64,000 nt of DNA from Candidatus Cloacimonadota bacterium (GTDB taxonomy: Bacteria; Cloacimonadota; Cloacimonadia; Cloacimonadales; DAONDQ01), in the NCBI GenBank assembly GCA_035402645.1, contig DAONDQ010000004.1, forward strand, positions 293-64,292, read 5' to 3'. Below are positions 3,837-33,665 of the stretch, piece after piece. The notes beneath the pieces are model-generated. The model saw only the letters and a program-made list of their open reading frames with translations, did not search any database and was not told the origin of the DNA. Made by a program: the position numbers and the translations under genes. Every line of letters starts with the position of its first letter. Positions within the stretch are counted from its first letter, which is position 1.

Positions 3837-4252
3837 TGTATCACCGATATGTTACCAGTTGAATTTATTACTAAAAATGTAGTATCTGCCACAACACAAA
3901 GCAAATCCACAGTATCGCGTTTATATGTAGCCTGTATTGCTCCATTCGTTCCAACAGTGGTTGGATAATCTCCCATAATTATCTGTTGTCCTGCAAACTG
4001 CTGAATACCCCATAATCCTTCTCCCATACCCACTACCTTAAATATAGTTCCTTTAACACATGTTTGGGGAAGTTTAAGACCTTGATAAGTTGCTTTTAAA
4101 ACTAAATGTATAGTATTAGGTGTTAAAATAACAACAGGTACACTATTTACATCTATCATTGATCTGTATCCCACTATACTTTGAAGATAGCGAGCATCCG
4201 GATCAACTTCTTGTCCGGTAGTTACATCCACTAATCCTTTGATGTTGCTCAT
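3833..4252 (-). CDS. small fibre-associated protein with a shared N-terminal docking motif
   Basis: 139 aa. The N-terminus MSNIKGLVDVTTGQEV parallels MANELKGLVNITTGAQV of the 785-aa fibre. Confidence 0.45.
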   Translation of the reverse strand: MSNIKGLVDVTTGQEVDPDARYLQSIVGYRSMIDVNSVPVVILTPNTIHLVLKATYQGLKLPQTCVKGTIFKVVGMGEGLWGIQQFAGQQIIMGDYPTTVGTNGAIQATYKRDTVDLLCVVADTTFLVINSTGNISVIQ

Positions 4253-4261
4253 ATTAGTTCC

Positions 4262-7147
4262 TTACCAAGTTGTTTCCACTACGTGACGGATAACAACATT
4301 GTCTGCTACCCAAATATAATTATAGCCACCATAGTAACCGCGTTCACCGTCTTTACCTGTCGATGTCGGTGTAGGTGCTGCACTAAGTGTCCTACGTGAT
4401 GCAATAGGCTGATTCTCGCTGTTACGGTAGAGCGTATAAGCTGCACCGTTAAATGCGTGTGAATCAAGTCCGGCATCGTAAGCGTATGCATTACCGGCAG
4501 TGTTCTTTTTGATTGTGAAATCAAAGTCGCCCGCTCCGGTATTGAATACAGAGTTCACTCCGCGTGTTTCAAATCCGATAGTAGGTCTAGTTGCAGTGTT
4601 GAAGAGTCCAACACCGAAGCAACTATTATAGATACAAGTTACCGCGCGGTCATTTGTAGCAAAGTACATCGGTTTGTTGGCATCGTTCGTGTTACCAAGA
4701 ACTACTGCTTCTGATTCTGCAATCGCGTTACCTGCAAGATCCTTAATAAAGGACGAACCCGCATAGGTCGCTCCGCACATTCTTATAAATGTACCTCTTG
4801 AAGTACCTCTGTTTGATGAAACAATCAATTCTGCAAGTCCTGCAGATGCACTGCCCAGTACCGACAACTGATTAGCAAAGCCATTAGTGATTTCAACAAA
4901 ATGTCCACTAATAGTAAGTTTGCTAGTGATTGACCAAGTACCGCCAAGTGTCATGCGAGCGACATCCATATTACCACTGACTATATCTGTTGTCGCGTGA
5001 GTATGACCGGTAAGAGAGAAGCTACTGAACGAGTAGCCACTGTCTTTAAGTATAGAACCTGTTGCGCCATTAAATGATGCGAAGTTTCCGTCTACTGCGC
5101 TTGTAGGACCGCTAACTATGCTATCAACATTGCGCTGAACAAGATTCCATTTGCTTCCAACAGTAGCTTGATCGCCGGATGCAGTTCCGTCGGTGTTACA
5201 AATCATCATATCACCAACTTCAACTATTGTACCGGATGATCCACCAATCTTTCCTGCTACTGAAACAACATACAGATGACCACAATCTGCTGCAGGATAA
5301 TTAGGAGAAGCTGCACAATCAATTACACCTTTGTACACTAGAGCATTTGCAGCTGCGATTAGACCATCAACATACAACTTATTTACAAGCTGATAGTCAG
5401 TAGTGGGAGATGCAGTAGGTCCGATTGGGAATGTTCCGAATGTATGAACATCTGTTCCCGCGTCGTAATTATATGCGATTCCAGAGGTTTTCTTATAGAT
5501 AAGGAAGTCCATATCTTGGGCATCCTTATTGAAGTAGTTAGCAAAAGCACCGGCAGTGTTACCATCGAATGATGCAATAACTTTACCGTTAGCTTCCAAC
5601 TGAATGAAACCACGTTGGAACTTCAATCTAGTATTAGTATCCGGAGTTCCTGCCATATAGTGACGTATGCTATCCGCTACCTGTATATCGCCATATATGA
5701 ATCTGACCACTGCACCGGAGATATCGAGAGTGGAATTGAGTGCCCAATCACCACTGAGAGGCATACGAGCGATATCAAGATTTCCACTTATTAAATCACT
5801 TGTTGCATGGCTATGACCGACCACCGATACAACATTTCCGGCAACAGTAACTTGTCCATCATTTCTGACTCTAAACAGGTCAGTATCAGACGAATTTGTT
5901 ACATGGAAAGCATCAACTTGATCATCACTTGTACGACCTTTAACTTTCAATCTGTCTTGAGATGTCCCGAGTGTACCTATTCCAAAACCGCCACTTGAGC
6001 CATTATAGAAGGAAGTGCTACTTCCACCGTTCATAACTATTCCTTGAGTGGAAGAGTTACCGCGATAGATATTGATTATACCACCAAGATTATCTGCACC
6101 AAATATGATACCAATATGATTAAATGTGGCTGCGGTATCTTCGAGCGTTAGGAATGTGAAAGTGGAATTATCTTTCGGTCCAATCATTCTGTGAGATGAC
6201 GTAACGGTCGACCATGTTCCGCCAACTGGCATAGCCAACGGATCGATTGTATCACCAGTATTATGTGCGCTAAGAACGGTCGTCGCGCGATCCCAAAGAT
6301 TTTCGGGAACTATTGCATCATCAACATACTTCTTATTAGCAAACTGATAATCCGTTGTTGGTGCTGCTGAAGGTCCGACAGGGAACGTGCTGAAAGTGTG
6401 CAAATCAAGTCCTGCATCATACTTATAAGCGTTGATTCCTGCGGTAGCTGCGCTTATGTTGAAGTCCAAATCTTGATGCCCGAAGTTGAAATCAATTACT
6501 CCGGACCCGAAAAGAAGACCATTGTAACTTATTCCGGAACTTATCTGTATGAGATTCAATCCACCTATTCTGCGAATAGTGGCAACACCACTTGCGCCTA
6601 AATAGAACTCAACACCGGTTGCAACTGTATTAACCATCTGAAACGCGAGAGCCTGTGCAGTTACATTGGTACTATTAAGTTTTACAGTTGTTGCTGATGC
6701 TAATGCGTTCTCGATTGTCAAATCACCAGTTACGTTCCAAGTTCCGCTAACTGGCATACGTGCGACATTGAGATTACCGCTTGAAAGGTCACCGGCTGAT
6801 CTCGTAGCAATGTCTGCGATGGACGACGTTGTCTTATCAATCATCGCCCAAGTATAATCATTGGCTGCAGGATAAACGTTACCCATTCTAGGTGCGCCCA
6901 TAGGTCCGAAGGATAGTACGCCCGATTGCATACTCGTATCAAGCCATGTGGCAGTTCCGGTATCCCATACCCACATAGTATCGGTAGAGCCAACGATTGC
7001 GAACCAACCCGCCTGTCCAGGTGTAGGCAAAGCTGCAGGATTTACATAGTATCCCTTGAAGTTCGCCAGTGATGCAAACTCTGCATGGTCATGACATACA
7101 AGACTTATGCCAAGTTTCTTTAAGAAAATGTCTACAACTGGAGTCAT
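4262..7147 (-). CDS. long tail fibre with a three-fold internal module repeat
   Basis: 961 aa. Three copies of SGN[LM][ND][VI]ARM[PT][VL][SG]G[TD]W are present. Three copies of ...YxYDAG[LT]DxH[TA]F... are also present. The first two of those are followed by PTTDYQxxNKxYVD, a common fibre-shaft motif. Confidence 0.7.
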   Translation of the reverse strand: MTPVVDIFLKKLGISLVCHDHAEFASLANFKGYYVNPAALPTPGQAGWFAIVGSTDTMWVWDTGTATWLDTSMQSGVLSFGPMGAPRMGNVYPAANDYTWAMIDKTTSSIADIATRSAGDLSSGNLNVARMPVSGTWNVTGDLTIENALASATTVKLNSTNVTAQALAFQMVNTVATGVEFYLGASGVATIRRIGGLNLIQISSGISYNGLLFGSGVIDFNFGHQDLDFNISAATAGINAYKYDAGLDLHTFSTFPVGPSAAPTTDYQFANKKYVDDAIVPENLWDRATTVLSAHNTGDTIDPLAMPVGGTWSTVTSSHRMIGPKDNSTFTFLTLEDTAATFNHIGIIFGADNLGGIINIYRGNSSTQGIVMNGGSSTSFYNGSSGGFGIGTLGTSQDRLKVKGRTSDDQVDAFHVTNSSDTDLFRVRNDGQVTVAGNVVSVVGHSHATSDLISGNLDIARMPLSGDWALNSTLDISGAVVRFIYGDIQVADSIRHYMAGTPDTNTRLKFQRGFIQLEANGKVIASFDGNTAGAFANYFNKDAQDMDFLIYKKTSGIAYNYDAGTDVHTFGTFPIGPTASPTTDYQLVNKLYVDGLIAAANALVYKGVIDCAASPNYPAADCGHLYVVSVAGKIGGSSGTIVEVGDMMICNTDGTASGDQATVGSKWNLVQRNVDSIVSGPTSAVDGNFASFNGATGSILKDSGYSFSSFSLTGHTHATTDIVSGNMDVARMTLGGTWSITSKLTISGHFVEITNGFANQLSVLGSASAGLAELIVSSNRGTSRGTFIRMCGATYAGSSFIKDLAGNAIAESEAVVLGNTNDANKPMYFATNDRAVTCIYNSCFGVGLFNTATRPTIGFETRGVNSVFNTGAGDFDFTIKKNTAGNAYAYDAGLDSHAFNGAAYTLYRNSENQPIASRRTLSAAPTPTSTGKDGERGYYGGYNYIWVADNVVIRHVVETTW

Positions 7148-7473: not shown

Positions 7474-9230
7474 GACGCACCTCTTGTCTTATTTTTATTA
7501 TTAATTGGATTCATATTTCCATCTTGGGAAATCTTTTTCATATCTTTAGCCATTGTCCCGTCAGCCATCTGCATCATGGCTTTCTTTCCACCTTGCGAAT
7601 TAGGATCGCCTTGAGCAGCTTGTATACGAGCAAGTCTTTCTGCGTGGTCTTGCGAGGCTTTCGCTGCTTCGCCTTTTGGGAAACCAATAGTTTCCGACGC
7701 CGTAGCATTGGAAACAAGTCCTGCTTCTGCAGCCTTCATAATGAATTCCGGATCGGTATTCATAACCTCAGCTGAATCAATTTCCTCGAATATCTCGTCC
7801 ATAGTGGTAGGAGATGCTTTATGCCCGAGAGTAAGTTGAGCAATATCCTTAGCTATGGCTTTCTGATATATCTTACTTGGAACAGTAATCATAACTTTAG
7901 CTTTCTTCATGGCTTCATCAGAACGTTCAGCTTCTGTCTGTAATGTGAACTGGCGAGGATAAGCTACTGTTACGTCATTAGGCTTATTCTCGTACATATG
8001 CCACAGTTCAGCTATGCGACGTTCAGTTGATTCAAGCATCACACCGAGATAAGCCAATCCGCTAACGAGACCTTCGTTGTCTAATTCCTTACTTTCAGCT
8101 GATGCCATACGAGGTCTGATATTATTGAGATTCAGAGAGATGAGTTCGCGTATTTCTTTCTTCATAGCATCCTGTTTCTCCATCGAAACCTTTAGAGGTT
8201 CGGGAGAAGGATGTATGAATCCCGGACGTTCTGAACCGACAGGATATTTACGCCCTTGTGCTGCACCAGTTACGATTTCTTTTGCCTTAGCTTGATCAGC
8301 TTCTTGAGTTGTTCCTTCTACTGGAGCAGTATTCCCACCTAATCCGCCAGTGCTAACCGCTGCAGTTGATGCGGTCTGTGCCTTACGGATGTACTCCATC
8401 ATATCACTTTTTGGATCATACTGTTCAGTATAGAACGGGAAATTTGATTTCGTTATGTAATTGATGTCGGAAGAAGCAATATTAAGAAGAGCAATCTGAT
8501 AATTGGCTATATCTGCCATCAATGCTTGCTTTGTTTCCAGTATGATAAATGGTATTTCTTTGATTTTCAAATCAAAACCGCTTATCTCGTTTCCTGCTTC
8601 ATCATACTCGGTAATGGAGACGCCCGCCGGTGTCCTAACTAAGTATCGGTAGGTTATCTCTATTTCGTCCGGAAGTCCCCACTGTTCATCAACGTCATTA
8701 CCATGACAACGAAGAAGCAGAACCGATAATTTGTTATCTTCGCCATACTGCCAAGAGAGAATATCCTCAGTAGGGAATGTGTATATGTATGGGTGCTTAT
8801 CTCCGAGGGTAGCCATCGTAGGTCCGATGTTCTTGTGCATATCCACGTATATGCCTACGCGAGCCATAGGAAGAAGTTCAGTTAATACGTTCTCGCCAAT
8901 GTAACCATTCATGCTTGAACCGTGTTCATCTACTCCACCAATCAATCCGGCTATGGCTTTCTGATATGATTCAGAACCATTTGTACGACGAATGTCGTTG
9001 GCTCGACTGAATATGGCTTTCCTAACGTCCTCGATAGCAGTTTTTGCGAAAGCCGGAACATAGGTAATAGCCTTCCTAACAAGGAAATCGTTATTCGTTT
9101 CCCTTGTGGAATAGTATTTAAGATACTGATCTATGAAATCGTCGCCACCGGCATATGTGTAACGCCACTTCTTCCACTTGTCATACATGGCTTTATATTC
9201 GGGATGACGAATATCAATCAGCTTACCCAT
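7470..9230 (-). CDS. portal protein
   Basis: 586 aa, starting 1 nt inside the TerL stop. Size, position and the flexible Gly/Lys/Asp-rich C-terminus fit a portal. The call rests on synteny rather than a motif. Confidence 0.7.
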   Translation of the reverse strand: MGKLIDIRHPEYKAMYDKWKKWRYTYAGGDDFIDQYLKYYSTRETNNDFLVRKAITYVPAFAKTAIEDVRKAIFSRANDIRRTNGSESYQKAIAGLIGGVDEHGSSMNGYIGENVLTELLPMARVGIYVDMHKNIGPTMATLGDKHPYIYTFPTEDILSWQYGEDNKLSVLLLRCHGNDVDEQWGLPDEIEITYRYLVRTPAGVSITEYDEAGNEISGFDLKIKEIPFIILETKQALMADIANYQIALLNIASSDINYITKSNFPFYTEQYDPKSDMMEYIRKAQTASTAAVSTGGLGGNTAPVEGTTQEADQAKAKEIVTGAAQGRKYPVGSERPGFIHPSPEPLKVSMEKQDAMKKEIRELISLNLNNIRPRMASAESKELDNEGLVSGLAYLGVMLESTERRIAELWHMYENKPNDVTVAYPRQFTLQTEAERSDEAMKKAKVMITVPSKIYQKAIAKDIAQLTLGHKASPTTMDEIFEEIDSAEVMNTDPEFIMKAAEAGLVSNATASETIGFPKGEAAKASQDHAERLARIQAAQGDPNSQGGKKAMMQMADGTMAKDMKKISQDGNMNPINNKNKTRGAS

Positions 9231-10979: not shown

Positions 10980-11522
10980 TCATGATTCTTTCCTCTCCGT
11001 TAAAGCGACCTGCATTTCGCGCACAATATTCTCAATCGTTTCTTTATCTGTAACGTATTTGTTTATGATTCCGACAATCTGCTCTGCCATCCTTATAACC
11101 GTGGTCTTCTCAATAGTGACGCCCATGTCCTTCTCCAATTTATGGCAACTCGTCACCAGTTTCTCGATCTTCAGTATGAGTTCGCTAATCGCGCCGGATT
11201 GAAGAATCATCTCGCTTGCATTTTCGAAGGCGTTCATCTTCTCTTCGAGAGTCATACGAAGTATAGCAATCTCATCGCGCAAGTCCTTAATGCCACTTGA
11301 TTCCCGCATCTCCGCTGCGCGAGTATGGAACTTCGTCAATCGGTAGTTGCGGAGGTTCTTCTCCTTCGCCTCGGTAGTAGCAGTATCACCGCCGTGTGCC
11401 AAACAATACTTCGAACCCACTTCGGCAACGTTGAGACACTGCCCATGAGCCTGTGAACCGGCTTGACACCGATTAGGATCGCGTTCATCCGTTACCCGTT
11501 TGATTCGTTCTTTATCAATCAT
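10980..11522 (-). CDS. putative terminase small subunit (zinc-ribbon plus coiled coil)
   Basis: 180 aa directly upstream of terL. The N-terminus carries RCQAGSQAHGQCLNVAEVGSKYCLAHGG, a C..C..C.H cluster, followed by a helical domain. The call is by position only. Confidence 0.45.
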   Translation of the reverse strand: MIDKERIKRVTDERDPNRCQAGSQAHGQCLNVAEVGSKYCLAHGGDTATTEAKEKNLRNYRLTKFHTRAAEMRESSGIKDLRDEIAILRMTLEEKMNAFENASEMILQSGAISELILKIEKLVTSCHKLEKDMGVTIEKTTVIRMAEQIVGIINKYVTDKETIENIVREMQVALTERKES

Positions 11523-11559
11523 AAAACGATTACTCCATCAGCTTACACACTTTACTGCC

Positions 11560-11575
11560 ATGATTATGCAATCAT
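11560..11575 (-). promoter_or_regulatory. 5'-UTR hairpin of the TGATT-N4-AATCA family
   Basis: ATGATT-ATGC-AATCAT, lying between the predicted -10 element (11588-11593) and the terS start. Confidence 0.4.
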
Positions 11576-11587
11576 ACATTTTCACTT

Positions 11588-11616
11588 ACTATACTACAAA
11601 ACACAAATAATAACAA
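11588..11616 (-). promoter_or_regulatory. sigma70-type promoter, copy 1 of 3 (drives the terS-terL-portal-fibre operon)
   Basis: The minus strand reads TTGTTA-17 nt-TATAGT. The same architecture and flanks (GTAGTATAGTA) occur at 33785-33813 and 33933-33961. Confidence 0.55.
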
Positions 11617-11790
11617 GTAGTGCCTTCCCGCGAAAATATAAAAATCATAAATGCCGATTCACTTTTAACATTTGCCAACGACTCGTGTAACAATTACCCA
11701 CTGGCTCTCGGATTGTGCAATCCGTATGAAGTATTAAATACACCATATATGTGAGTTTCGATGGAGGGTTCGGCGGACTTGGAAAATTTC

Positions 11791-11860
11791 ACAACTTACT
11801 ACAACAATTATAACCCACCGCCTGTTGTAAATGGTTGTTGAATCACAACGCGATACAACA
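11791..11860. repeat. cluster of ACAAC/GTTGT pentamer repeats
   Basis: cACAACttactACAACaatt...ccTGTTGTaaatgGTTGTtgaatcACAACgcgatACAACaaaac. The order is two direct, two inverted and two direct copies, upstream of terS. Confidence 0.5.
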
Positions 11861-11934
11861 AAACTATTTTTAAAATATTTTATTTATTTTGCTTGTATAG
11901 TTTGTTTATTTACGAATGACAATTATATTATTAT

Positions 11935-12058
11935 AGGATAATAATATATCCTATGTTCATTGATAATATAATAGTTTGAAGTTTGTAAAAACTGGCACGA
12001 ACGTGCAAAGCTACAAATTAAAACAAAGGTAAATAATAACAAGATAAAAACTTGTTAT
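11935..12058 (+). promoter_or_regulatory. repeated regulatory module, copy A
   Basis: It opens with the near-palindrome AGGATAATAATATATCCT. A 24-nt block ATATATCCTATGTTCATTGATAAT (11944-11967) follows and is identical to 13236-13259. Next comes a nested hairpin at 11982-12017. The module ends with the hairpin ATAACAAG-ATAAAAA-CTTGTTAT (12036-12058). Confidence 0.55.
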
Positions 12059-12065
12059 CCTAATT

Positions 12066-12451
12066 GAAAAATTATTCTATTGTAATCTGTTGTATCGAAA
12101 ATAAAAAGGTGATACAATGAAAATTTTTAATTATCATTTCGTAATTTTTGGTACTAACGAAAAACGCAATTTAATTATTGACGCCTCTTGCGAATCTGAG
12201 GCAATACAAAAATTCAATTGCAAAACAGAATTACAAAATATTAGAATTGAAAAAATATCTTATGCAAATATTCCGAATAGGAAAAACGCTTATGGTGAAT
12301 TCGTTGTTCAAATTTATGTAAATGGGAAAAGACAAAAAGACAACGAATATTTCGCGACGAATTTCGATGACGCTTTAGCGACCGCGCAAAGTATGATAAC
12401 GAATTACTAAAACAAACAAGATACAACAGATTCACAATAGAATAATTTTTC
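12066..12451 (+). repeat. inverted-repeat pair 1, bracketing ORF 12117-12410
   Basis: The left arm 12066-12096 is GAAAAATTATTCTATTGTAATCTGTTGTATC. Its reverse complement matches 12420-12451 at all 31 positions, with one extra C in the right arm. Confidence 0.9.
12117..12410 (+). CDS. hypothetical early protein (97 aa)
   Basis: ORF preceded by the AAAAGGTGATACAATG leader. No motif recognised. Confidence 0.55.
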   Translation: MKIFNYHFVIFGTNEKRNLIIDASCESEAIQKFNCKTELQNIRIEKISYANIPNRKNAYGEFVVQIYVNGKRQKDNEYFATNFDDALATAQSMITNY

Positions 12452-12465
12452 AAACAAAATAAAAA

Positions 12466-12862
12466 TACTGTTGTATATTGTATAGCTTGCCTTTTGAAAA
12501 GGTGATAAAATGGAAATTAAAATTTTAAAGATAGATGGTTTTACTTGCCTTAATTATTTATCCAGTATGGAAACAATACAAGATAGATATTTAATTCAAG
12601 CGGTTATGTCATACGTTATACAACACAAGGAAACAAAAGTAATTGACCATGCATACTGGAAAGCGGAATATCATTTAATAATTGAAAATGCTTTTGAGAT
12701 ATTTTTTATTAAAGAGCAAACAAAGAAAACGGAAATATATTTAAAACTTATTCCGCTTGAAGAAAATTTATTTTTGAATTACGAATATCAAAATAAAATT
12801 CTATTACTTGGAATTGTCAATTAACAAAAGGCAAAAGGCAAGATATACAATATACAACAGTA
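12466..12862 (+). repeat. inverted-repeat pair 2, bracketing ORF 12510-12824
   Basis: The left arm 12466-12495 is TACTGTTGTATATTGTATAGCTTGCCTTTT. Its reverse complement matches 12833-12862 at 29 of 30 positions. Confidence 0.9.
12510..12824 (+). CDS. hypothetical early protein (104 aa)
   Basis: ORF preceded by the AAAAGGTGATAAAATG leader. No motif recognised. Confidence 0.55.
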   Translation: MEIKILKIDGFTCLNYLSSMETIQDRYLIQAVMSYVIQHKETKVIDHAYWKAEYHLIIENAFEIFFIKEQTKKTEIYLKLIPLEENLFLNYEYQNKILLLGIVN

Positions 12863-12864
12863 TA

Positions 12865-13112
12865 GAAAATATTTTTTAGTGCCTCTTGAATAGCCAAAAG
12901 GTGATAACATGAAAAGCGGAATAATGGAATTAATAAACAAACTGGAAAGAGTAAATAGGAAACTAAAAAGGCTTGAAAGCTATTTAAACAAAAGAGGAAA
13001 TGATATTTTACAGGAAAGACATTTTAGACTTTACAAGGAAAAAAGGCTTTTATTAAAGCATATTTCAATTGAACTAAATTAAAAATTTCAAGAGGCACTA
13101 AAAAATATTTTC
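12865..13112 (+). repeat. inverted-repeat pair 3, bracketing ORF 12909-13082
   Basis: The left arm 12865-12890 is GAAAATATTTTTTAGTGCCTCTTGAA. Its reverse complement is identical to 13087-13112 (26/26). Confidence 0.9.
12909..13082 (+). CDS. hypothetical coiled-coil miniprotein (57 aa, below the ORF-track cutoff)
   Basis: The ATG follows an AAAAGGTGATAACATG leader. The product is MKSGIMELINKLERVNRKLKRLESYLNKRGNDILQERHFRLYKEKRLLLKHISIELN. Confidence 0.45.
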   Translation: MKSGIMELINKLERVNRKLKRLESYLNKRGNDILQERHFRLYKEKRLLLKHISIELN

Positions 13113-13130
13113 AATTTATTTTGTAAAGGC

Positions 13131-13177
13131 TTGAAAATAATTTTTAGTATGCTGTAAATTCAGAAAATTATTTTCAA
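13131..13177 (+). terminator. AT-rich hairpin with a T-tract (weak intrinsic terminator, or an 'empty' fourth repeat unit)
   Basis: TTGAAAATAATTTT (13131-13144) and AAAATTATTTTCAA (13164-13177) pair 14/14 around a 19-nt loop. The downstream sequence is TTATTTTTTACTTTT. Confidence 0.45.
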
Positions 13178-13209
13178 TTATTTTTTACTTTTGTTTGAAC
13201 TATTAAATT

Positions 13210-13353
13210 AAGGATATACTATATATAAGGATATTATATATCCTATGTTCATTGATAATTAAATAGTGTTTTGTTTTTCAAAAACGGGATTTTGAAAATC
13301 CAAGCTGAAAACAAAATACAACAGGGAAATTAAAAAAGATAAAAACTTTTTTA
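13210..13353 (+). promoter_or_regulatory. repeated regulatory module, copy B
   Basis: AGGATAT..ATATCCT near-palindromes are followed by the 24-nt block 13236-13259, identical to copy A. A nested hairpin lies at 13268-13319. The module ends with the hairpin TAAAAAAG-ATAAAAA-CTTTTTTA (13331-13353), which has the same loop as copy A on a compensatorily changed stem. Confidence 0.55.
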
Positions 13354-13392
13354 CTGGATTACGATTTCAAATAATCTTAATCAAATTTCATT

Positions 13393-14490
13393 AAATGATT
13401 GAATATTGCTTTTCCGCTTTCCTCAAAAATGAGGTGCGTAAATGATTAATCTTAAAGGTCTTAAAATTCAGGAAATAGCAAAAGACAAGTGCTTTCCTAA
13501 CGTCAAAAATCCGAGAATTGAACTTATCACCTTTGATATAGATGATACGCTCAAAGATGAAAAGACTACAACAGGAATTAAAAAGCCTTGCGTTGTCTTT
13601 GATGATGGTTCGGGAAAATTTGAAATAGGGCAAGGTCACCGCCGTTGGGCAAGTGCCATGAAATTCGAACATATCAAAACTATTCCGTGTATTGTTATTC
13701 CGAAAAGCGGATTAACGGAATTGGATATGTTGGAAATTCTTATGGACCATAATGAGGAAACACCGCTTTCAAAAGCGGAATGTTTCAAGGCAATAAAGGA
13801 ATTTTTCCTTTTGTCTTTCGGTGATTCGGCAATAATAAAGCGTTGTAAAATGCTTCTGAATTCCTCTTTCGGTAGTCCATCGCCGGAAAAGATAAAAGAT
13901 GCTCGAAAAGAGGCGGTCGAAATGCATGAAGATGCCGACCGCGCCGAAGAAAAAGTAATTTTCGAAAAGCACCACGGCACTATTCAGAATTTCCGCCGTC
14001 TTGCCCTTTTGCCTGTTTCCGTTCAAGAGGAATATATAAAGGCATGGCAAGGTCGGAATTCCGACCTAACTCAGAAAGATATTAAAATACTTTCTGAATT
14101 TTGGAACGAACTTGTAAAGGCTAATCCGGAAACAAAGGTTTCCGAACCTCCAAAAGCGTTCGAAGATAAGGTCGAGGAACTAAAGGAAATAAACCGCCAA
14201 CCGGATGATAAGAAAAAATCCGTAAAGCGGTCAAAGTCCGACATAGAAAATATGTCAAAAGGCACTGAAAATGCTATCGTGCGGAAAACTCTTTCATGGG
14301 TTTTAGGTGAAATTACTGATTCCGAGTTGAAAGATTACGTCAAGGCAAAAAGCAACTAACTAACATGGGACGGGAAATCCCATGAATGAGATTTCGTTTT
14401 TATTGATTTTTATTGTAATAGCCTTTATATACTGGCTATGTTTTGAGAAATAAATAAAATCGGAAAGCGGAAAGCAATATTCAATTATTT
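13393..14490 (+). repeat. inverted-repeat pair bracketing the ParB-like gene
   Basis: The left arm 13393-13422 is AAATGATTGAATATTGCTTTTCCGCTTTCC. Its reverse complement matches 14462-14490 (GGAAAGCGGAAAGCAATATTCAATTATTT) with one indel and one mismatch. Confidence 0.85.
13442..14359 (+). CDS. ParB/Srx-fold N-terminal domain protein (paralogue 1)
   Basis: 305 aa. The ParB box-II-like sequence is EIGQGHRRWASAMKFEHIKTIPCIV. The C-terminal LSWVLGEITD matches LAWTIGEISD of ORF 28311-29213. Confidence 0.65.
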   Translation: MINLKGLKIQEIAKDKCFPNVKNPRIELITFDIDDTLKDEKTTTGIKKPCVVFDDGSGKFEIGQGHRRWASAMKFEHIKTIPCIVIPKSGLTELDMLEILMDHNEETPLSKAECFKAIKEFFLLSFGDSAIIKRCKMLLNSSFGSPSPEKIKDARKEAVEMHEDADRAEEKVIFEKHHGTIQNFRRLALLPVSVQEEYIKAWQGRNSDLTQKDIKILSEFWNELVKANPETKVSEPPKAFEDKVEELKEINRQPDDKKKSVKRSKSDIENMSKGTENAIVRKTLSWVLGEITDSELKDYVKAKSN

Positions 14491-14500
14491 AAGGAACAAA

Positions 14501-14737
14501 ATGGATGATATTTATAAAATTGTTTATTCCGATAAATTCGTTAATATGACGAATTTTGATTTGGCAAATTATTGCCGTCAAAACTTCGGCATTTTCTCGG
14601 ATTATTCGGAAAAGCTATTTGCGAATGATTCATACATCAAGTATCTATCTTGCGCGTTTACAGAATTGAAGAAAAATGACTCTGTAAAGGCGCAATATGT
14701 TCGCGAGGAAATTTTAAAACGATTGATGAATCAGTAA
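14501..14737 (+). CDS. hypothetical protein (78 aa)
   Basis: ORF with an AAGGAACAAAATG leader immediately after the right arm of the ParB-gene repeat. Confidence 0.45.
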   Translation: MDDIYKIVYSDKFVNMTNFDLANYCRQNFGIFSDYSEKLFANDSYIKYLSCAFTELKKNDSVKAQYVREEILKRLMNQ

Positions 14738-14751
14738 CAAAGGGGAAAATT

Positions 14752-14934
14752 ATGATGAAAAGTACAACAGAAACTCTTTTGGAATACTTCTTTGATTCGC
14801 TTATTATGCATGACTATGACAACGCCGACGACATCATCGAAGATTTCCGAAATTTTCCCGATTTTTACAAAGAATTGAATCGTATGTATACCGAAGCAAC
14901 AAAGGAAAGGAATCCGGTACAATGGAAAAGCTAA
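14752..14934 (+). CDS. hypothetical protein (60 aa)
   Basis: ORF preceded by GGGGAAAATTATG, in an operon with its neighbours. Confidence 0.4.
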   Translation: MMKSTTETLLEYFFDSLIMHDYDNADDIIEDFRNFPDFYKELNRMYTEATKERNPVQWKS

Positions 14935-15098
14935 TTGAATTGCACACGATGTATTGCTTGGATGCCATCGTCGACGGAGATTTCAAAAGTTACAAGAAAA
15001 GCTATCTGTATCTTGCGGAATTGAGCAGGAAATTCACTAAACTGCACAAATTCATCGTCATGATTCTCGAATCATTAGAAGAAAGGAGGATGGCATGA
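14922..15098 (+). CDS. hypothetical protein (58 aa, below the ORF-track cutoff)
   Basis: The ATG at 14922 overlaps the end of the previous ORF. The product begins MEKLIELHTMYCLDAIVDGDFKSYKK and the stop is at 15096-15098. The terminator follows 35 nt later. Confidence 0.4.
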   Translation: MEKLIELHTMYCLDAIVDGDFKSYKKSYLYLAELSRKFTKLHKFIVMILESLEERRMA

Positions 15099-15133
15099 AG
15101 TAAACAAGTAAAATTAGTCCTTTTTGATCATGA

Positions 15134-15170
15134 ATGGCGCATAATTTACCCCGATTATGCGCCATTTTTC
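15134..15170 (+). terminator. rho-independent terminator ending the plus-strand early block
   Basis: A perfect 12-bp stem, ATGGCGCATAAT / ATTATGCGCCAT, closes an 8-nt loop and is followed by TTTTC. Confidence 0.8.
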
Positions 15171-15460
15171 GTGCCTGTAAACCGATGACGGCAGAATCAC
15201 CACATAAGGCGCTGATTCTCCGCCCTGCATCCATTTCCGCCTGTAAAAGCGCTAAAAAGCATTAATCATGATTTGCTGATCTTAGCGAATCATAAAATAC
15301 AATGTATCGCGAAAACTGGCTTCGTGGTAAATTCCGGATTGATTCTTCGGTACTCCGAAGATTACATGATTTAGTGCCAAGATTAACAATGTTAGTTTTA
15401 CGAGTTTGGATTTGGTCAGTAAAGGGAAGTCGGATTCAGAATCATTTTGAGGCTGGATTC

Positions 15461-15502
15461 TAACTTACTTACTAATATACTTACTAACTAACTAACTAAC
15501 TT
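15461..15502. repeat. TAACTTAC / CTAA short tandem repeats
   Basis: TAACTTACTTACTAATATACTTACTAACTAACTAACTAACTT. TAACTTAC is the reverse complement of the GTAAGTTA iterons at 33901-33924. Confidence 0.8.
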
Positions 15503-15642
15503 CGTCAAATATGATAAGCATACTCCCCTATATATGTACATATACTGGTCTCCTGTCAGTAACTCCGTAAAGCAAGCCTAAGTTTTCAGCCAGTACGGAC
15601 ACGTAAAAGCCTGTAAAATCGAAATTTAAGCGGTTACTACGC

Positions 15643-15694
15643 AATTAAAGGGCATTTCCCGAAGGTTTTGTAAAACCGACTCCGAGAAATGCCC
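15643..15694 (-). terminator. terminator-like hairpin ending the minus-strand replication block
   Basis: On the minus strand, GGGCATTTC ... GAAATGCCC forms a 9-bp stem. It contains an inner GGTTTT/AAAACC stem and is followed by TTTAATT. It lies 38 nt after the nuclease gene stop. Confidence 0.55.
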
Positions 15695-15731
15695 ATTGGT
15701 AACTTTTGTCAATGAAATGTGTAAACTGAAT

Positions 15732-16901
15732 CTATCGCGCTCGCGTCATGGTATCTAACCATTTATCATTGTCCGATGGCGCAATCATGCAACTGTTAAT
15801 TAACATTTCGCACTGGTTCACCGAAGCTAATTCGGGGTTCACTTCGAACTCGCTGAGCGTATGCTTGAAAAACATCTTCTTGAGCCTTTCGTCGTCGAGA
15901 GCCAGTATACTCCACAAGTATATATACTTCTCCATCAGAGATTTTTGGAAGTCCTTACCGACACCCATACGGAAACTGGCGATTCGTATCTCCGGCATAA
16001 GGGATTGTGCAATCACGAGTTCCTCATACTCCGAAGCCGACATCATTCCCCTATCCCTTAATTGCTTACAACAGAGTTGATCAATACCGCAGTATATCTC
16101 GTCACCCACTTCCGCGCCGAGTGCCCAAGCATAGGTCACGACCTGTCCTGCCCATTCTTCGCTGACCGTTTCGAGGTTCAACATACCATTGACATTGATA
16201 CCGCACACGTTGTGATGCATATAATCTTTGTGTGCTTTATTGTGGTTCTTGGAATGTGCGCCAATCGTTTCATCCCAACCATCACGTAACACACTATACC
16301 CTTTCTTTGGACTTGTTGTCGATGCGCTCATGAAGCCATTGACTTTCCAATCGAGGATGAACGTCGCGATTTTGTTGCCATCGGACGCGCAAGCGGTTTG
16401 GAAACAAAGATCGGGCTTACCTAACAATGGTACGCCGTGCATAGTTCGCGTGACCGTTTTCTCCATTTTAATTGATCCCTCAATCGCCTTGCCCATATCC
16501 ATAGCTAACGATGCCAAAGCACCGGATTGCATATAGCAACGGAAGGCGTATCGACCGGCATTAACAAGGAACTCTCTGTTCCTTACACTATGACTCGCTT
16601 CGACCTGCGTAGTAAGCATAGTTTCGAGGTCGTATTCCGTGCCCGCGGATTTCCCAATCAGTTTCTCGTAAAGCCACGACTTCGCGAACGCATCGAACGA
16701 CGATCCCACGCCCATAGGAACGGTCTGCGGAATCTTCTCCGGCGGATTAGCACAAATCCTTTGGAGGAAGAACTCGTCGGGATACTTGTAGAACTGATTG
16801 ACCGACGTAGGGGATAGGAATTTAGGTCGACGAAGCGGTGGCACTTCCCCGTAAATCGGCTTGAATATTAAAGTCTTTCCATCATGTGTTCGGTAATTCA
16901 T
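15732..16901 (-). CDS. PD-(D/E)XK (RecB/Cas4-like) nuclease
   Basis: 389 aa. Motifs are GKPDLCF, FILDWKVNG (D...D-x-K) and QVVTYAW (QxxxY). The N-terminus contains LIFKPIYGE. Confidence 0.55.
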   Translation of the reverse strand: MNYRTHDGKTLIFKPIYGEVPPLRRPKFLSPTSVNQFYKYPDEFFLQRICANPPEKIPQTVPMGVGSSFDAFAKSWLYEKLIGKSAGTEYDLETMLTTQVEASHSVRNREFLVNAGRYAFRCYMQSGALASLAMDMGKAIEGSIKMEKTVTRTMHGVPLLGKPDLCFQTACASDGNKIATFILDWKVNGFMSASTTSPKKGYSVLRDGWDETIGAHSKNHNKAHKDYMHHNVCGINVNGMLNLETVSEEWAGQVVTYAWALGAEVGDEIYCGIDQLCCKQLRDRGMMSASEYEELVIAQSLMPEIRIASFRMGVGKDFQKSLMEKYIYLWSILALDDERLKKMFFKHTLSEFEVNPELASVNQCEMLINSCMIAPSDNDKWLDTMTRAR

Positions 16902-28310: not shown

Positions 28311-29213
28311 TTACTGTTCTGAATCACTGTTATCACCCACCAGTTGAGATGTCGTGCTTATACACTGTGATTCCGGCATTACGAACTTGATGTTATTCTC
28401 CTTCGCGACGTGTTCGACAGTGAGAAGCATATCGTAATCACTTATCTCACCTATTGTCCATGCAAGGGCACGAGTAGCAAGTCCGTTACCAAATGTTTCA
28501 CGAATCAAAGTCTGAAGTTCCAGTACCTCGGACACGTGCCTCTGCCTCTTGGCATCTTTCTTTGCTACTCTAATGGTCATCTTCTTTCCATTAGCAGTGC
28601 CTTTAGTTCCCTTGTATTTGTGAACCAACTGAACCATGTCATCGATTGATCCGCCGTTCTTTCTAATAGTATACAGGTCACGAATCATGGTCTGATTGAT
28701 ATTACCAAGTCTTGCTTCTTCTTGGAACTCTTTAGGTAATTGGAGAAGCATACACCGAACCTGTACCCAACCACGAGTTGAGGACAACTTGTCTGCTATC
28801 TCCTGTTGAGTCATTCCTAAGTCGATGAACTTGCCTAATGCATTAGTTTCATCCATGATGTTTAAATCTGCTCTCTTGATGTTCTCCGCGAGATTTATGA
28901 ATCGCGCTTCCACATCACTAAGGTCATCACGTATGAAGCAAGGTATGGTCTCGGCTTCATTTACTTGATGCGCTTTGAATCGACGATGACCTGCAACGAT
29001 TATATACTTCTTACCATCTTTAGGCTCTTTCAATGTCCTAACGATGATTGGTGCGTGTAGACCGTTCTTTTTTATATCGTCAGCTATATCCACCACACTC
29101 AAAGCACTGAAACTACCACGACAGTTGAAATCCGGATCAGCGAATATTTCCTTCACCGGAATCTGATGTACTTGATAGCGTTCCTTCATGTTTTCCAACG
29201 ATAAATCTGCCAT
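28311..29213 (-). CDS. ParB/Srx-fold N-terminal domain protein (paralogue 2)
   Basis: YIIVAGHRRFKAHQVNEAETIPCFI is like ParB box II (GxRRxxA), followed by an HTH-like MTQQEIADKLSSTRGWV. Confidence 0.7.
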   Translation of the reverse strand: MADLSLENMKERYQVHQIPVKEIFADPDFNCRGSFSALSVVDIADDIKKNGLHAPIIVRTLKEPKDGKKYIIVAGHRRFKAHQVNEAETIPCFIRDDLSDVEARFINLAENIKRADLNIMDETNALGKFIDLGMTQQEIADKLSSTRGWVQVRCMLLQLPKEFQEEARLGNINQTMIRDLYTIRKNGGSIDDMVQLVHKYKGTKGTANGKKMTIRVAKKDAKRQRHVSEVLELQTLIRETFGNGLATRALAWTIGEISDYDMLLTVEHVAKENNIKFVMPESQCISTTSQLVGDNSDSEQ

Positions 29214-32663: not shown

Positions 32664-33665
32664 TTATGCGATCTTGATTCCGACGGAAGCGGCATCCTTC
32701 TTAGCCTGCTCTGCTTCCTTCTGAAGTTTGGCAATCTTTGCCTCGGCGTTCTCGTACTTCTTCTGAACGGTTTCCTTGATACGCCTTTCCTTCGCTTCGG
32801 CGAGAGCCTTCTTACGGGCTTCGTACTTGGCGAGAGATTCGGCAATCGCGGCTTTGTCCATTTTCAGAACCCAGCGAATCGCAAGTGCGAATCCATCGGC
32901 AGGAGTACCGGCGTTTTCCTCTTTGCAGAGTTTCGCGCCAATAGCCGGTGATTCATATTCACCCTTGATTTCGGCAGGTTTCCTCATGACAGGAATTGCC
33001 ACGAATTCTTCCGGCTGACCGTCCTTGCCTTCGCGACGTGCCTTGTCGAGTTCCTTCTTCCTTGATTCAACAAGGGGAACGAATTCAACGGGAGGAAGAG
33101 TCATGGCTCTGTCAAGGAAAGCTGCGATTTCGCCTTCGGGTAGCTTGCTGAGTGCATACGCATTACCGAGTTTGATTTCACCGCTATCAACGGAGTCCTG
33201 TACTTCCTTGGGAAGAGTAAGGAGACCAAAGCGTTCTGAAATCCATGCCGTTGATTTGCAAATCTTCTGAGCGAGATCGGCAACGGTCATGAGAGGGTAG
33301 ACGGAAAGCATACGCTTGAGACCTTTGGCGTACTCAACGGGCTTTGTGTCGACCTTCTGAATATTCGCAACAATCTGAGTTTCAAGAGCTTCTGCCTCTG
33401 AAACATCGAGGATCTGAACAGGTATCTCAATCAAACCTGCCCTCTTTGCGCCTGTATAGCGATGGAGACCATCAACGATACAGAATTTCCCCGCATTTTC
33501 GCCGTCGCGGAGTTCACGGACGCTAATGGGATTTACGATTCCCTTAGCCTTAATCGATTCTGCAATCTCCTGGAACTGTTCTGATTCCTCATTTACTGAG
33601 CGCAGAGCGACGGGAGATTCGACGATCTGATCCAGTTTGAGTGTCGCAAGTTTTGACATTTGCAA
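32664..33665 (-). CDS. ParB/Srx-fold N-terminal domain protein (paralogue 3) with a Lys/Ala/Glu-rich C-terminal tail
   Basis: CIVDGLHRYTGAKRAGLIEIPVQIL (ParB box II-like) is followed by an HTH-like MTVADLAQKICKSTAWISERF. This is the first gene of the minus-strand block. Confidence 0.65.
   Translation of the reverse strand: MQMSKLATLKLDQIVESPVALRSVNEESEQFQEIAESIKAKGIVNPISVRELRDGENAGKFCIVDGLHRYTGAKRAGLIEIPVQILDVSEAEALETQIVANIQKVDTKPVEYAKGLKRMLSVYPLMTVADLAQKICKSTAWISERFGLLTLPKEVQDSVDSGEIKLGNAYALSKLPEGEIAAFLDRAMTLPPVEFVPLVESRKKELDKARREGKDGQPEEFVAIPVMRKPAEIKGEYESPAIGAKLCKEENAGTPADGFALAIRWVLKMDKAAIAESLAKYEARKKALAEAKERRIKETVQKKYENAEAKIAKLQKEAEQAKKDAASVGIKIA

Follow-up and report, generated by a model that had tools for sequence, protein, structure and literature searches.

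Closest described systems

Long-range stems flanking an RNA are the textbook bacterial route to the excision of rRNA. Local stem-loops or direct repeats of conserved sequence, acting in DNA recombination, mark the promoter-stem-loop (PeSL) cassettes of T4-type phages and the attC sites of integrons. Double-stranded RNA between phage genes is represented by the intergenic RNase III sites in the early mRNA of T7 and T3 (R0.3-R1.3) and in SP82 of Bacillus, for which the references are reportedly Dunn and Studier in 1983 and Saito and Richardson in 1981. The 16S and 23S rRNAs of Aquifex are flanked by stems of ~33 and ~44 bp, respectively, which are cleaved by RNase III (PMC3074117). In the icaR mRNA of Staphylococcus aureus, the 3′ UTR pairs with that molecule's own 5′ UTR to form an RNase III substrate, and translation is repressed by a short UCCCCUG motif that covers the SD (PMC3868564). 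The full-length hok mRNA is closed by a long-distance 5′-3′ UTR interaction (PMC9841398).

The stretch of DNA analysed here, referred to as the window, comprises 64,000 nucleotides and belongs to an uncultivated tailed phage whose host is known only through the Cloacimonadota label of the MAG. Several + strand genes in it, including one for a 305-aa ParB-like protein, are bracketed by complementary segments. These brackets resemble the RNase III stems of rRNA operons in their long-range pairing around the mature RNA, their length (20-45 bp), their serial arrangement and their covariation. They differ in that the phage units enclose translated cistrons, with the SD and the stop codon set against the helix, span 0.2-1 kb as opposed to 1.5-3 kb in rRNA, and have neighbouring arms that abut with 0-3 nt between them; cleavage is here only predicted. 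With the T7, T3 and SP82 sites the brackets share double-stranded RNA between phage cistrons, presumably serving to produce discrete stable mRNAs through a host enzyme, but the T7 sites are local hairpins with internal loops, whereas the two strands of a phage bracket lie on opposite sides of a gene and would leave the ends of the product paired. The icaR mRNA is comparable as a case of pairing between the 3′ and 5′ UTRs of a bacterial mRNA, but the phage helices are 19-45 bp long, do not mask the SD, come in series and are found in all relatives. The literature on gene-flanking or long-range RNase III stems, on 5′-3′ pairings in phage mRNAs and on hok yielded no prior description of such a design.

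A 33-bp helix encloses the ParB-like gene

The bracketed unit around the ParB-like gene, hereafter unit D, consists of the following features:

13387..13422, + strand: left (5′) arm of helix D, ending 19 nt upstream of the ParB-like ATG (13442)
13442..14359, + strand: ParB_N-like ORF of 305 aa, first cistron in bracket D (Pfam, PHROG and homologues)
14364..14384, + strand: local hairpin CATGGGA/TCCCATG, 5 nt past the ParB-like stop
14382..14453, + strand: hydrophobic mini-ORF of 23 aa, MNEISFLLIFIVIAFIYWLCFEK, second cistron in bracket D
14462..14496, + strand: right (3′) arm of helix D, starting 8 nt past the mini-ORF stop

A sequence-only reading of this region had reported that positions 13393-13422 (AAATGATTGAATATTGCTTTTCCGCTTTCC) are complementary to 14462-14490. 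The complementarity was verified, with one extra T forming a bulge and one G/A difference that is a G·U pair in the + strand RNA. Both arms reach 6 nt further outward than first noted, and the full pairing comprises 33 bp, encloses 1,039 nt and has a duplex energy of -43.5 kcal/mol. The reported spacings were borne out as well: 19 nt lie between the left arm and the ATG, the right arm lies 102 nt past the ParB-like stop (about 100 nt had been claimed) and just ahead of the next ORF, which starts at 14501, and the two strands of the hairpin are found at 14364-14370 and 14378-14384. The SD of the ParB-like ORF (GAGGTG, 13431-13436) lies outside the helix and is unsequestered, and the outer end of the right arm (AAGGAA, 14491-14496) is itself an SD-like sequence for the ORF at 14501.

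The strength of the match was measured by local alignment of the 150 nt upstream of the unit against the reverse complement of the 350 nt downstream. The score of 55 compares with 21.4±3.0 in dinucleotide shuffles (maximum 36 in 2,000; z = 11.4) and with at most 29 at 600 evenly spaced control positions in the rest of the window. Helix D is also recovered in both the minimum-free-energy and the centroid folds of the entire 1,131-nt stretch. The complementarity is real and far above chance.

The enclosed 305-aa protein matches Pfam PF02195 (27.1 bits, where the cut-off is 26.3; E = 4.4e-6) and PHROG ParB-like families at 1e-9, so that its ParB_N domain places it in the ParB/Srx superfamily. It has eight homologues with 44-70% identity, and it lacks the HTH_ParB domain that is present in the two other ParB genes of the phage. 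The region past its stop codon had been described as holding a local hairpin; the hairpin stands, and the region also contains a conserved hydrophobic mini-ORF of 19-23 aa, presumably for a membrane peptide, which sits past the ParB-like stop and ahead of the right arm in 9/9 relatives examined. With the mini-ORF recognised, the right arm starts only 8 nt past the last stop codon, as it does in the small units described below. The SD and the start codon of the mini-ORF are held within the hairpin, the start codon in its 3′ arm, and the hairpin covaries among relatives (CGGGGA/TCCCCG, TGGGAG/CTCCCA, TAGGAG/CTCCTA and TTGGG/CCCAA). It appears to couple translation of the mini-ORF to that of the ParB-like gene.

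A conserved gene for a hydrophobic peptide inside a bracket, whose start codon is part of a covarying hairpin and which, like hok with mok, seems to be translationally coupled to an upstream ORF, raises the possibility that unit D is a fold-back lock, in which the mRNA of a toxic peptide would be kept inert and stable until 3′ processing, as by tac/fbi in hok/Sok. The likeness to hok/Sok (PMC9841398) extends to the long-distance 5′-3′ closure, the small hydrophobic peptide and the coupling to an upstream frame. We nevertheless consider a lock of this type improbable. The phage brackets are not specific to the peptide unit, at least 14 other bracketed units being without a hydrophobic peptide; the SD of the enclosed genes is not covered by the helix, as a lock of this kind would have it; and the main enclosed product is a 305-aa ParB-like protein. 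Neither did Rfam (E-value mode, positions 11000-16000) return a family, the only hit being a chance miRNA match at E = 0.43, although this test is weak for a long-range helix, as covariance models cannot span a 1-kb insert.

Small upstream units share the geometry

The sequence-only reading had described unit D as another instance of an architecture seen around small ORFs. Three upstream units, lying back to back, indeed have helices of 25-33 bp around their ORFs, and the design thus reaches beyond tiny ORFs to a gene of 305 codons. The arms of these units are:

12064..12096, + strand: unit A left arm, 33 bp with 12420-12453, around ORF 12117-12410
12420..12453, + strand: unit A right arm
12465..12496, + strand: unit B left arm, 31 bp with 12832-12863, around ORF 12510-12824
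12832..12863, + strand: unit B right arm, 0 nt from the unit C left arm
12862..12890, + strand: unit C left arm, 25-28 bp with 13087-13115, around ORF 12909-13082
13087..13115, + strand: unit C right arm

Around each small ORF, 8-20 nt separate the left arm from the ATG, and 2-11 nt separate the stop codon from the right arm. Across the window and its relatives, 22 helices of 19-45 bp were collected, 21 of them at least 21 bp long whatever their GC content (21-54%), and all brackets were recovered by thermodynamic folds of full transcripts. Neighbouring helices are 0-3 nt apart at four junctions (B/C in the window, s1/C in the related locus L004, and s1/s2 and s2/D in L006); helices A and B of the window are separated by 11 nt. 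About 10 of the 22 helices carry a central mismatch or bulge 9-16 bp from a helix end, which might be an RNase III feature, and four are perfect, a count that is confounded by shared ancestry. Homologues of unit C are bracketed in four other lineages too. The window showed no large inverted repeat surrounding the whole + strand block, of the kind present in L004. No brackets surround the tightly packed - strand genes or the three ORFs downstream of helix D; therefore, the design is not general for this phage.

The junctions between units do not behave as hairpins of the T7 type. Taken alone, those of the window fold weakly (-12.4 and -12.8 kcal/mol), and those of L004 and L006 range from -3.5 to -16 kcal/mol. 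Strong local folds occur only in L007 (-25 and -39 kcal/mol), where two junctions can fold instead as local intergenic hairpins of 18-25 bp, in a T7-type arrangement. These alternatives in L007 suggest that double-stranded RNA at cistron boundaries is what is needed.

Pairing is conserved while arm sequences diverge

Loss of complementarity in relatives had been named as evidence that would count against the bracket, and covariation had been proposed as a check. Pairing turned out to be conserved, and compensatory change was found among the relatives. A bracket of 25-35 bp is present at the equivalent place in 8/8 distinct relatives with both flanks available, and the arm sequences are largely different. 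When the unit D flanks of these eight relatives were compared in all combinations, each upstream region found its best partner in the downstream region of the same relative, and the cognate sum, 378, is the single maximum of 40,320 permutations; the non-cognate arms score 12-23, close kin excepted. For the homologous unit C, represented in five lineages, the cognate pairing is again the unique maximum, of 120 permutations. The permutation tests for units C and D are free of circularity because the flanks were unselected.

An alignment of the arms was also analysed with RNAalifold. It was built from trimmed arm constructs, as MAFFT alignment with the natural flanks misregistered the right arms. 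It contains 23 consensus pairs, 22 of which have changes on both sides, and 87.4% of its cells are paired, compared with 59.9±2.5% in shuffles (0/500 reach it) and 37-47% in slid controls, a figure that is partly circular since the arms had been picked as the best-pairing segments. Covariation from eight lineages is as strong as that for many accepted RNA families. That the bracket is a selected feature, and not a product of chance, is supported.

The base pairs themselves indicate which strand folds. The 22 helices contain 606 pairs of the Watson-Crick type, and G·U pairs number 19 on the + strand against only 3 that would exist on the - strand (p = 4e-4); the + strand duplex is the more stable in 13 units and the less stable in 3. 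This asymmetry points to a helix in the sense (+) transcript.

The same data bear on whether the repeats act in DNA, as terminal inverted repeats of mobile cassettes, as ends of invertible segments, or as attC-like single-stranded or cruciform sites. The array of small variable accessory genes resembles a cassette array, and in being punctuated by structured repeats it is like PeSL and attC arrays; the arms move along with the genes, and an 8-mer, TACAACAG, recurs at helix ends. Unlike PeSL and attC elements, however, the phage arms are specific to their unit and fold as sense-strand RNA. With non-cognate complementarity at background and only complementarity being conserved, the unit-specific arms offer no terminal sequence for a protein to recognise; one specific strand folds, which is the coding strand; arm boundaries follow SD and stop codons; a 1-kb loop is implausible for a cruciform; no integrase, invertase or transposase appears among the 25 Pfam families listed, out of 26, for the 78 ORFs; and no unit is inverted in the related loci or in three near-identical contigs. 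Under such circumstances, a function in DNA is highly improbable.

Distribution of the design

A blastn comparison of 4 kb against 50,697 phage records found no match. Relatives of the ParB-like protein were found neither in IMG/VR, by single sequence and by profile, nor in GTDB genomes; therefore, this family is known only from metagenome contigs. A terminase search for more distant phages retrieved L015 and L016 (47% identity), which have nested palindromes and iterons in a non-coding region and no gene brackets; L014 has none. The absence of brackets in these three indicates that the design is limited to a subclade. Within the population, the near-identical contigs L017-L019 show zero differences across 11441-15800 and hence no population-level covariation.

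Predicted transcripts

The signals that may delimit the transcript of unit D are, in order:

13131..13195, + strand: AU-rich hairpin resembling a terminator (13131-13144 / 13164-13177), with a U-rich tract after it, located past unit C and before P2
13228..13259, + strand: P2, promoter/operator-like module, palindrome AGGATATTATATATCCT and 21-mer TATCCTATGTTCATTGATAAT
13266..13319, + strand: leader stem GUGUUUUG/CAAAAUAC around an inner hairpin, kept in L001
14501-14737, 14752-14934 and 14922-15098, + strand: three unbracketed distal ORFs downstream of helix D
15133..15166, + strand: terminator-like hairpin AATGGCGCATAAT/ATTATGCGCCATT, then TTTT

The 21-mer, at 13239 in P2, is duplicated exactly at 11947-11967 in a module designated P1, with no third copy in the window, and P1 has a leader structure analogous to that of P2. 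Judging from these motifs, the leader stem would be the 5′-proximal structure of a P2 transcript and the hairpin at 15133-15166 its end. A scan with sigma-70 and terminator consensus models gave background level only, and is thus uninformative for this host. Since a terminator-like hairpin and a second promoter-like module intervene, unit D is probably on a different primary transcript than units A-C. The ParB-like gene had been regarded as one more unit of an early array; it is a bracketed unit, but a transcript shared with units A-C is not what these signals favour. The label "early" itself would derive solely from the AT-rich, small-ORF character of the block.

Processing stems or uncut clamps

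We think it somewhat probable that the helices are RNase III-type processing and stability stems, which would punctuate phage mRNAs in the style of rRNA operons. The arms of unit D are best read as the strands of a 33-bp long-range helix in the + transcript, closing a two-cistron loop of 1,039 nt. They exemplify a clade-wide design of the AT-rich + strand block, in which each cistron or small group of cistrons has its own helix of 19-45 bp, with the left arm ending just before the SD and the right arm beginning a few nucleotides past the last stop codon. The complementarity, its maintenance by compensatory change, its strand polarity and its constant placement around the translation signals are demonstrated by the analysis; the role of the helices is predicted. 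Cleavage would fall in both strands of each helix and be carried out by the RNase III of the host. At helix D, the P2 transcript would be split into a leader, an mRNA for the ParB-like protein and the mini-ORF, and a distal mRNA with three ORFs. The 5′ and 3′ ends of the middle product would stay paired and might thereby be shielded from 5′-end-dependent and from 3′ exonucleolytic decay, and the cut would release the SD of the first distal ORF, located in the outer end of the helix. Two hallmarks of processing stems are present, namely flanking complementary segments of at least ~20 bp (33 bp in unit D; 19-45 bp in the 22 units) and pairing kept by compensatory change among relatives. The abutting of neighbouring helices, and the length of nearly all of them regardless of GC content, fit RNase III as well. 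No RNase III, RNA polymerase, RNA ligase or recombinase was found among the 25 Pfam families listed, out of 26, for the 78 ORFs; therefore, a host enzyme must be assumed. The gene for it, rnc, is near-universal in bacteria.

The length and stability of the helices fit an uncleaved structural clamp equally well. It is possible, though not what we would expect, that the helices form in the mRNA and stay uncut, as clamps or insulators of a non-covalent closed-loop mRNA. Each cistron would be closed into a nuclease-shielded loop with its SD in a constant single-stranded context beside the helix, and the stop codon may come close to the start for re-use of ribosomes. All the structural evidence is shared between this reading and that of processing stems. 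The SD and ATG lie free and invariably just within the helix, and the stop codon is 2-11 nt from the right arm, an arrangement compatible with translation; in either case, a helix that closes a translated 1-kb loop must form after or between rounds of translation. The accessory ORFs vary among relatives, ORF B of the window being an ORFan that matches only itself, and each has private arms, like a self-contained cassette. Genes inserted after the ParB unit are flanked too: in L011 by a clear 21-bp helix (score 37), and in L006 by 15 nt of weaker complementarity whose score of 25 is close to background. Against an uncut clamp, the helices (21-45 bp, -24 to -62 kcal/mol) greatly exceed the length that end protection calls for, and keeping them uncut would be difficult in a bacterium that has RNase III; the local intergenic hairpins at two junctions of L007 would close no loops, and unit D encloses only the first two of five cistrons.

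Tentatively, each accessory gene might instead be viewed as a self-contained RNA cassette that carries along a private 20-45 bp helix, with cutting by RNase III being optional or regulatory. The mRNA would then be a non-covalent loop that can be translated, withstands nucleases and is kept independent of its sequence context. If true, such a design would give bacterial viruses a counterpart of closed-loop mRNA and would be a naturally occurring equivalent of the synthetic RNA insulator.

Implications

To our knowledge, long-range flanking stems have not been recognised as an organiser of protein-coding operons, and the known 5′-3′ UTR pairings of mRNAs, in icaR and hok, are isolated instances that repress. 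In this phage, an entire block of cistrons is arranged as consecutive loops, each closed by a helix. Should the helices be processing sites, they would represent a second, independent use of the rRNA-type solution, this time for mRNAs, with products protected at both ends. If they are uncut clamps, they would constitute a natural closed-loop or insulator design that is directly usable in synthetic operons. In either case, serial inverted repeats that are private to each unit and set tight against SD and stop codons provide a search signature, which could reveal such blocks, as well as unannotated mini-ORFs comparable to that of the 23-aa peptide, in other uncultivated phages.

A long helix encloses the ParB-like gene

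The 305-aa ParB-like ORF (13442-14359, + strand) was thought, from the sequence-only reading, to lie between reverse-complementary arms at 13393-13422 and 14462-14490. This was confirmed in the sequence, save for an additional T and a single G/A difference, and the complementarity reaches 6 nt beyond that span. The full arms (13387-13422 and 14462-14496) form helix D, which has 33 bp and carries a single G·U pair, a bulged U and an A·G mismatch; its duplex energy is -43.5 kcal/mol and the loop it closes measures 1,039 nt. When the 150 nt 5' of the ATG were aligned with the reverse complement of the 350 nt 3' of the stop, the score was 55, against 21.4±3.0 (maximum 36) in 2,000 dinucleotide shuffles and a top score of 29 among 600 controls placed at even intervals through the rest of the window. 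When the entire 1,131-nt stretch is folded as RNA, the minimum-free-energy and centroid structures each contain helix D. At the outer end of its right arm, AAGGAA is the Shine-Dalgarno (SD)-like sequence of ORF 14501.

The same bracket architecture encloses small ORFs, as had been proposed, and three such units lie back to back upstream.

Small bracketed units upstream of the ParB-like gene (+ strand)
Unit A: left arm 12064-12096, right arm 12420-12453, ORF 12117-12410
Unit B: left arm 12465-12496, right arm 12832-12863, ORF 12510-12824
Unit C: left arm 12862-12890, right arm 13087-13115, ORF 12909-13082

Arm sequences are not the same from unit to unit, and the right arm of unit B adjoins the left arm of unit C with zero spacer. 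In small units of the window and of relatives, 8-20 nt separate the left arm from the ATG, a gap that holds only a strong SD (AAGGTGATA in the window), and the right arm follows the stop at a distance of 2-11 nt. No bracket was found around the three ORFs past the ParB-like unit, unit D (14501-15098), or around the tightly packed - strand genes of the window.

Copies of the octamer TACAACAG or its complement number 11, an enrichment over the 2.2±1.5 expected, and 8 of them fall within 11822-14770. The octamer is located at the inner end of helix A, the outer end of helix B, the leader of the promoter-like module near 13239, and the inner ends of the helices of small units s1 and s3 in the relative contig L007, where it occurs at 396, 695, 1035 and 1322. 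It permits alternative pairing of neighbouring units (12421-12429 with 12467-12475), and might serve as a recognition element or be a vestige of arm duplication.

Conservation and covariation of the arms

The ParB-like protein has eight cluster-level homologues (44-70% identity), and their contigs were compared together with two more from a metagenome scan. Complementarity is conserved: each distinct relative with both flanks (L001, L003, L004, L006, L007, L011, L013) carries a bracket of 25-35 bp in the same position. The arm sequences have largely diverged, left-arm identity across lineages being 33-69%. In an alignment-free comparison with no arms picked by eye, the 120 nt 5' of each gene were scored against the 200 nt 3' of all genes. 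Each upstream region found its best partner in its own downstream region; the cognate sum (378) was the single top value of 40,320 permutations, and non-cognate scores were 12-23, close kin excepted. RNAalifold on eight arm pairs returned 23 base pairs, 22 of which have changed on both sides. In this structure 87.4% of cells are paired, compared with 59.9±2.5 in shuffles, and none of 500 shuffles matched any of five observed measures. Sliding the 3' partner by 1-3 columns reduced the paired cells to 37-47%.

Homologous unit C is bracketed in the window, L001, L004, L007 and L013, its cognate pairing being the sole maximum of 120 permutations. The remaining accessory ORFs vary among relatives yet keep private brackets. 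ORF B had no homologue anywhere searched, and the near-identical contigs L017-L019 showed no population variation across positions 11441-15800.

The helices probably fold in the sense strand

Across 22 helices with 606 Watson-Crick positions, 19 transitions are G·U in + strand RNA and 3 are G·U on the - strand only (binomial p = 4e-4; 17 vs. 3 without two differences common by descent); the remainder are 17 transversion mismatches and 6 gaps. Of the 22 duplexes, 13 are stabler as + strand than as - strand RNA, 3 are less stable and 6 show no difference. The G·U asymmetry, the duplex stability and the fixed position relative to SD and stop codons point to folding in the sense transcript, and speak against a signal in double-stranded DNA or a terminal repeat recognised by a protein. 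Repeats acting at the DNA level are the least credible explanation, since such models account for neither the unit-specific arms nor the G·U asymmetry, and no recombinase is among the 25 Pfam families listed (78 ORFs). RNase III, RNA polymerase and RNA ligase are likewise absent from those families.

A conserved mini-ORF within the bracket

The right arm, placed earlier about 100 nt past the ParB-like stop, is indeed 102 nt from it, but the gap is not untranslated. An unannotated mini-ORF (MNEISFLLIFIVIAFIYWLCFEK, 14382-14453) lies directly 3' of the gene, and a hydrophobic, single-helix mini-ORF of 19-23 aa is found between stop and right arm in 9/9 relatives examined.

Mini-ORF positions in relative contigs
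L001: 1492-1560
L003: 966-1034
L004: 6904-6972
L006: 3328-3387
L007: 2936-2998
L010: 897-959
L011: 1158-1217

The product could be a membrane-active peptide. The local hairpin CATGGGA...TCCCATG (14364-14384) exists as described, starting 5 nt past the ParB-like stop; it contains a GGGA/GGAG SD-like element, has the mini-ORF start codon in its 3' arm, and covaries across lineages (CATGGGA/TCCCATG, CGGGGA/TCCCCG, TGGGAG/CTCCCA, TAGGAG/CTCCTA, TTGGG/CCCAA). Ribosomes ending ParB-like translation would open this hairpin, coupling translation of both cistrons. The mini-ORF stop is 8 nt from the right arm in the window, and -2 to 9 nt in 6/7 lineages with a mapped right arm (outlier L011, 22 nt). 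With its last stop so near the right arm, unit D therefore follows the small-unit geometry.

A hydrophobic peptide encoded in unit D would suit a fold-back lock like that of hok, whose tac/fbi pairing (PMC9841398) is one of the closest known systems. This reading is nonetheless improbable, because it leaves unexplained the many brackets around other genes and the free SD.

Transcription context

The exact 21-mer TATCCTATGTTCATTGATAAT has just two copies in the window, at 11947 and 13239. An operator-like palindrome, AGGATA(N5-6)TATCCT, precedes and overlaps both, and each copy is followed by a -10-like hexamer and then a leader stem with an inner hairpin.

Candidate transcription signals
11935-11967: regulatory module P1, ahead of a bracketed gene set
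13131-13195: between unit C and P2, a terminator-like hairpin (AU-rich) with a U tract after it
13228-13259: regulatory module P2, ahead of a bracketed gene set
15133-15166: terminator-like GC-containing hairpin followed by T's, past ORF 14922-15098

The P2 leader is kept in L001; L004 has an analogous duplicated box, GATATAyTGwTATCAGTAAA. Palindrome and 21-mer probably constitute a shared promoter plus operator, the promoter and terminator labels being inferred from sequence. Because the promoter-like module is duplicated and a hairpin and U tract separate unit C from P2, unit D probably opens a second transcript, with the probable order leader, helix D around ParB and the mini-ORF, three distal ORFs, and terminator. 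The ParB-like gene shares the bracket design of the array to which it had been assigned, but it probably belongs to a second transcript, and "early" is a putative label.

At 13097-13195, the right arm of unit C has two possible partners for its outer half: the unit C left arm and a near-copy of it (13131-13148). The near-copy also pairs with 13164-13177, just before the U tract. These mutually exclusive helices could be a termination/read-through switch between the two transcription units.

The phage genome and its other repeats

The window is nearly the entire 64.5-kb contig, which is a tailed phage despite its Cloacimonadota MAG label. It encodes a GpA-type terminase, P22-type coat protein, tape-measure protein, DNA polymerase A, ligase, SNF2 helicase, Dam methylase and three ParB_N proteins, and searches of the phage DNA collection, IMG/VR and GTDB gave no match. 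The + strand block that holds the bracketed genes has 29.5% GC, and the - strand modules on either side of it have ~41%.

ParB_N-domain proteins
13442-14359 (+): bracketed, without HTH_ParB
28311-29213 (-): with HTH_ParB
32664-33665 (-): with HTH_ParB

No integrase is among the 25 Pfam families listed, so the phage may have a plasmid-like lifestyle, or there may be a non-partition role (nuclease or CTPase).

Arms at 33779-33816/33930-33967 (38 nt, 89% complementary) make up the window's longest inverted repeat. Between them, in a divergent intergenic region, are 113 nt that are AT-rich, lack ORFs and contain TAAGTTAGTAAGT repeats. This inverted repeat does not bracket a gene and could be an origin or divergent-promoter element; the TAAGTTAGTAAGT motif recurs at 15460-15500 and, in L004, close to 4600 and 7885. 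In L004, a ~350 bp inverted repeat (4340-4710 vs. 7800-8130) flanks the whole + strand block, as do iteron-like tandem repeats (7480-7680 and 4790-4850, with units like GCGTCAAATAAGCACCACAAT); in the window, no flanking repeat of that size was found. In L016, a more distant phage (47% terminase identity), a non-coding region (3879-4434) contains nested inverted repeats and four copies of an 18-nt palindrome, TGTAGGGAAATCCTACAC; these are iteron- or operator-like, unlike the gene brackets.

Possible function and origin of the brackets

Helix D is a conserved, strand-specific, long-range element placed against translation signals. Helix length is at least 21 bp in 21/22 cases, independent of GC content, and the helices are placed exactly at cistron boundaries. 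Two L007 junctions can alternatively fold as local intergenic hairpins (18-25 bp, -25 and -39 kcal/mol), as in the T7-type layout; no comparably strong local fold is possible at the window, L004 and L006 junctions. From the helix lengths, the boundary positions and the L007 alternative, we somewhat favor processing and stability stems presumably cut by RNase III, by analogy with those flanking 16S and 23S rRNA, which in Aquifex are ~33 and ~44 bp and are cut by RNase III (PMC3074117). Cleavage in helix D would yield a ParB and mini-ORF mRNA with its two ends paired together, and would free the SD of the distal message. The main competing explanation, tentative but deserving consideration, is that the helices stay uncut and act as clamps or insulators, each holding its cistron in a loop that is both protected and translatable, and moving with the shuffled accessory genes.

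Among the other closest known systems, the rRNA stems are alike in topology but enclose rRNA rather than protein-coding cistrons. The T7 early RNase III sites share the setting but are local hairpins, and the icaR 5'-3' UTR pairing (PMC3868564) shares the idea but is a single repressive case masking an SD. Rfam gave no match, and no description of such gene brackets was found in the literature searched. The design is absent from phages at 47% terminase identity, and thus appears restricted to a subclade. In L007 (690-765 and 978-1050), the arms of successive units share sequence, so that the junctions are palindromic and foldable as local hairpins rather than long-range brackets. These junctions may represent an evolutionary bridge from T7-type intergenic hairpins to gene brackets.
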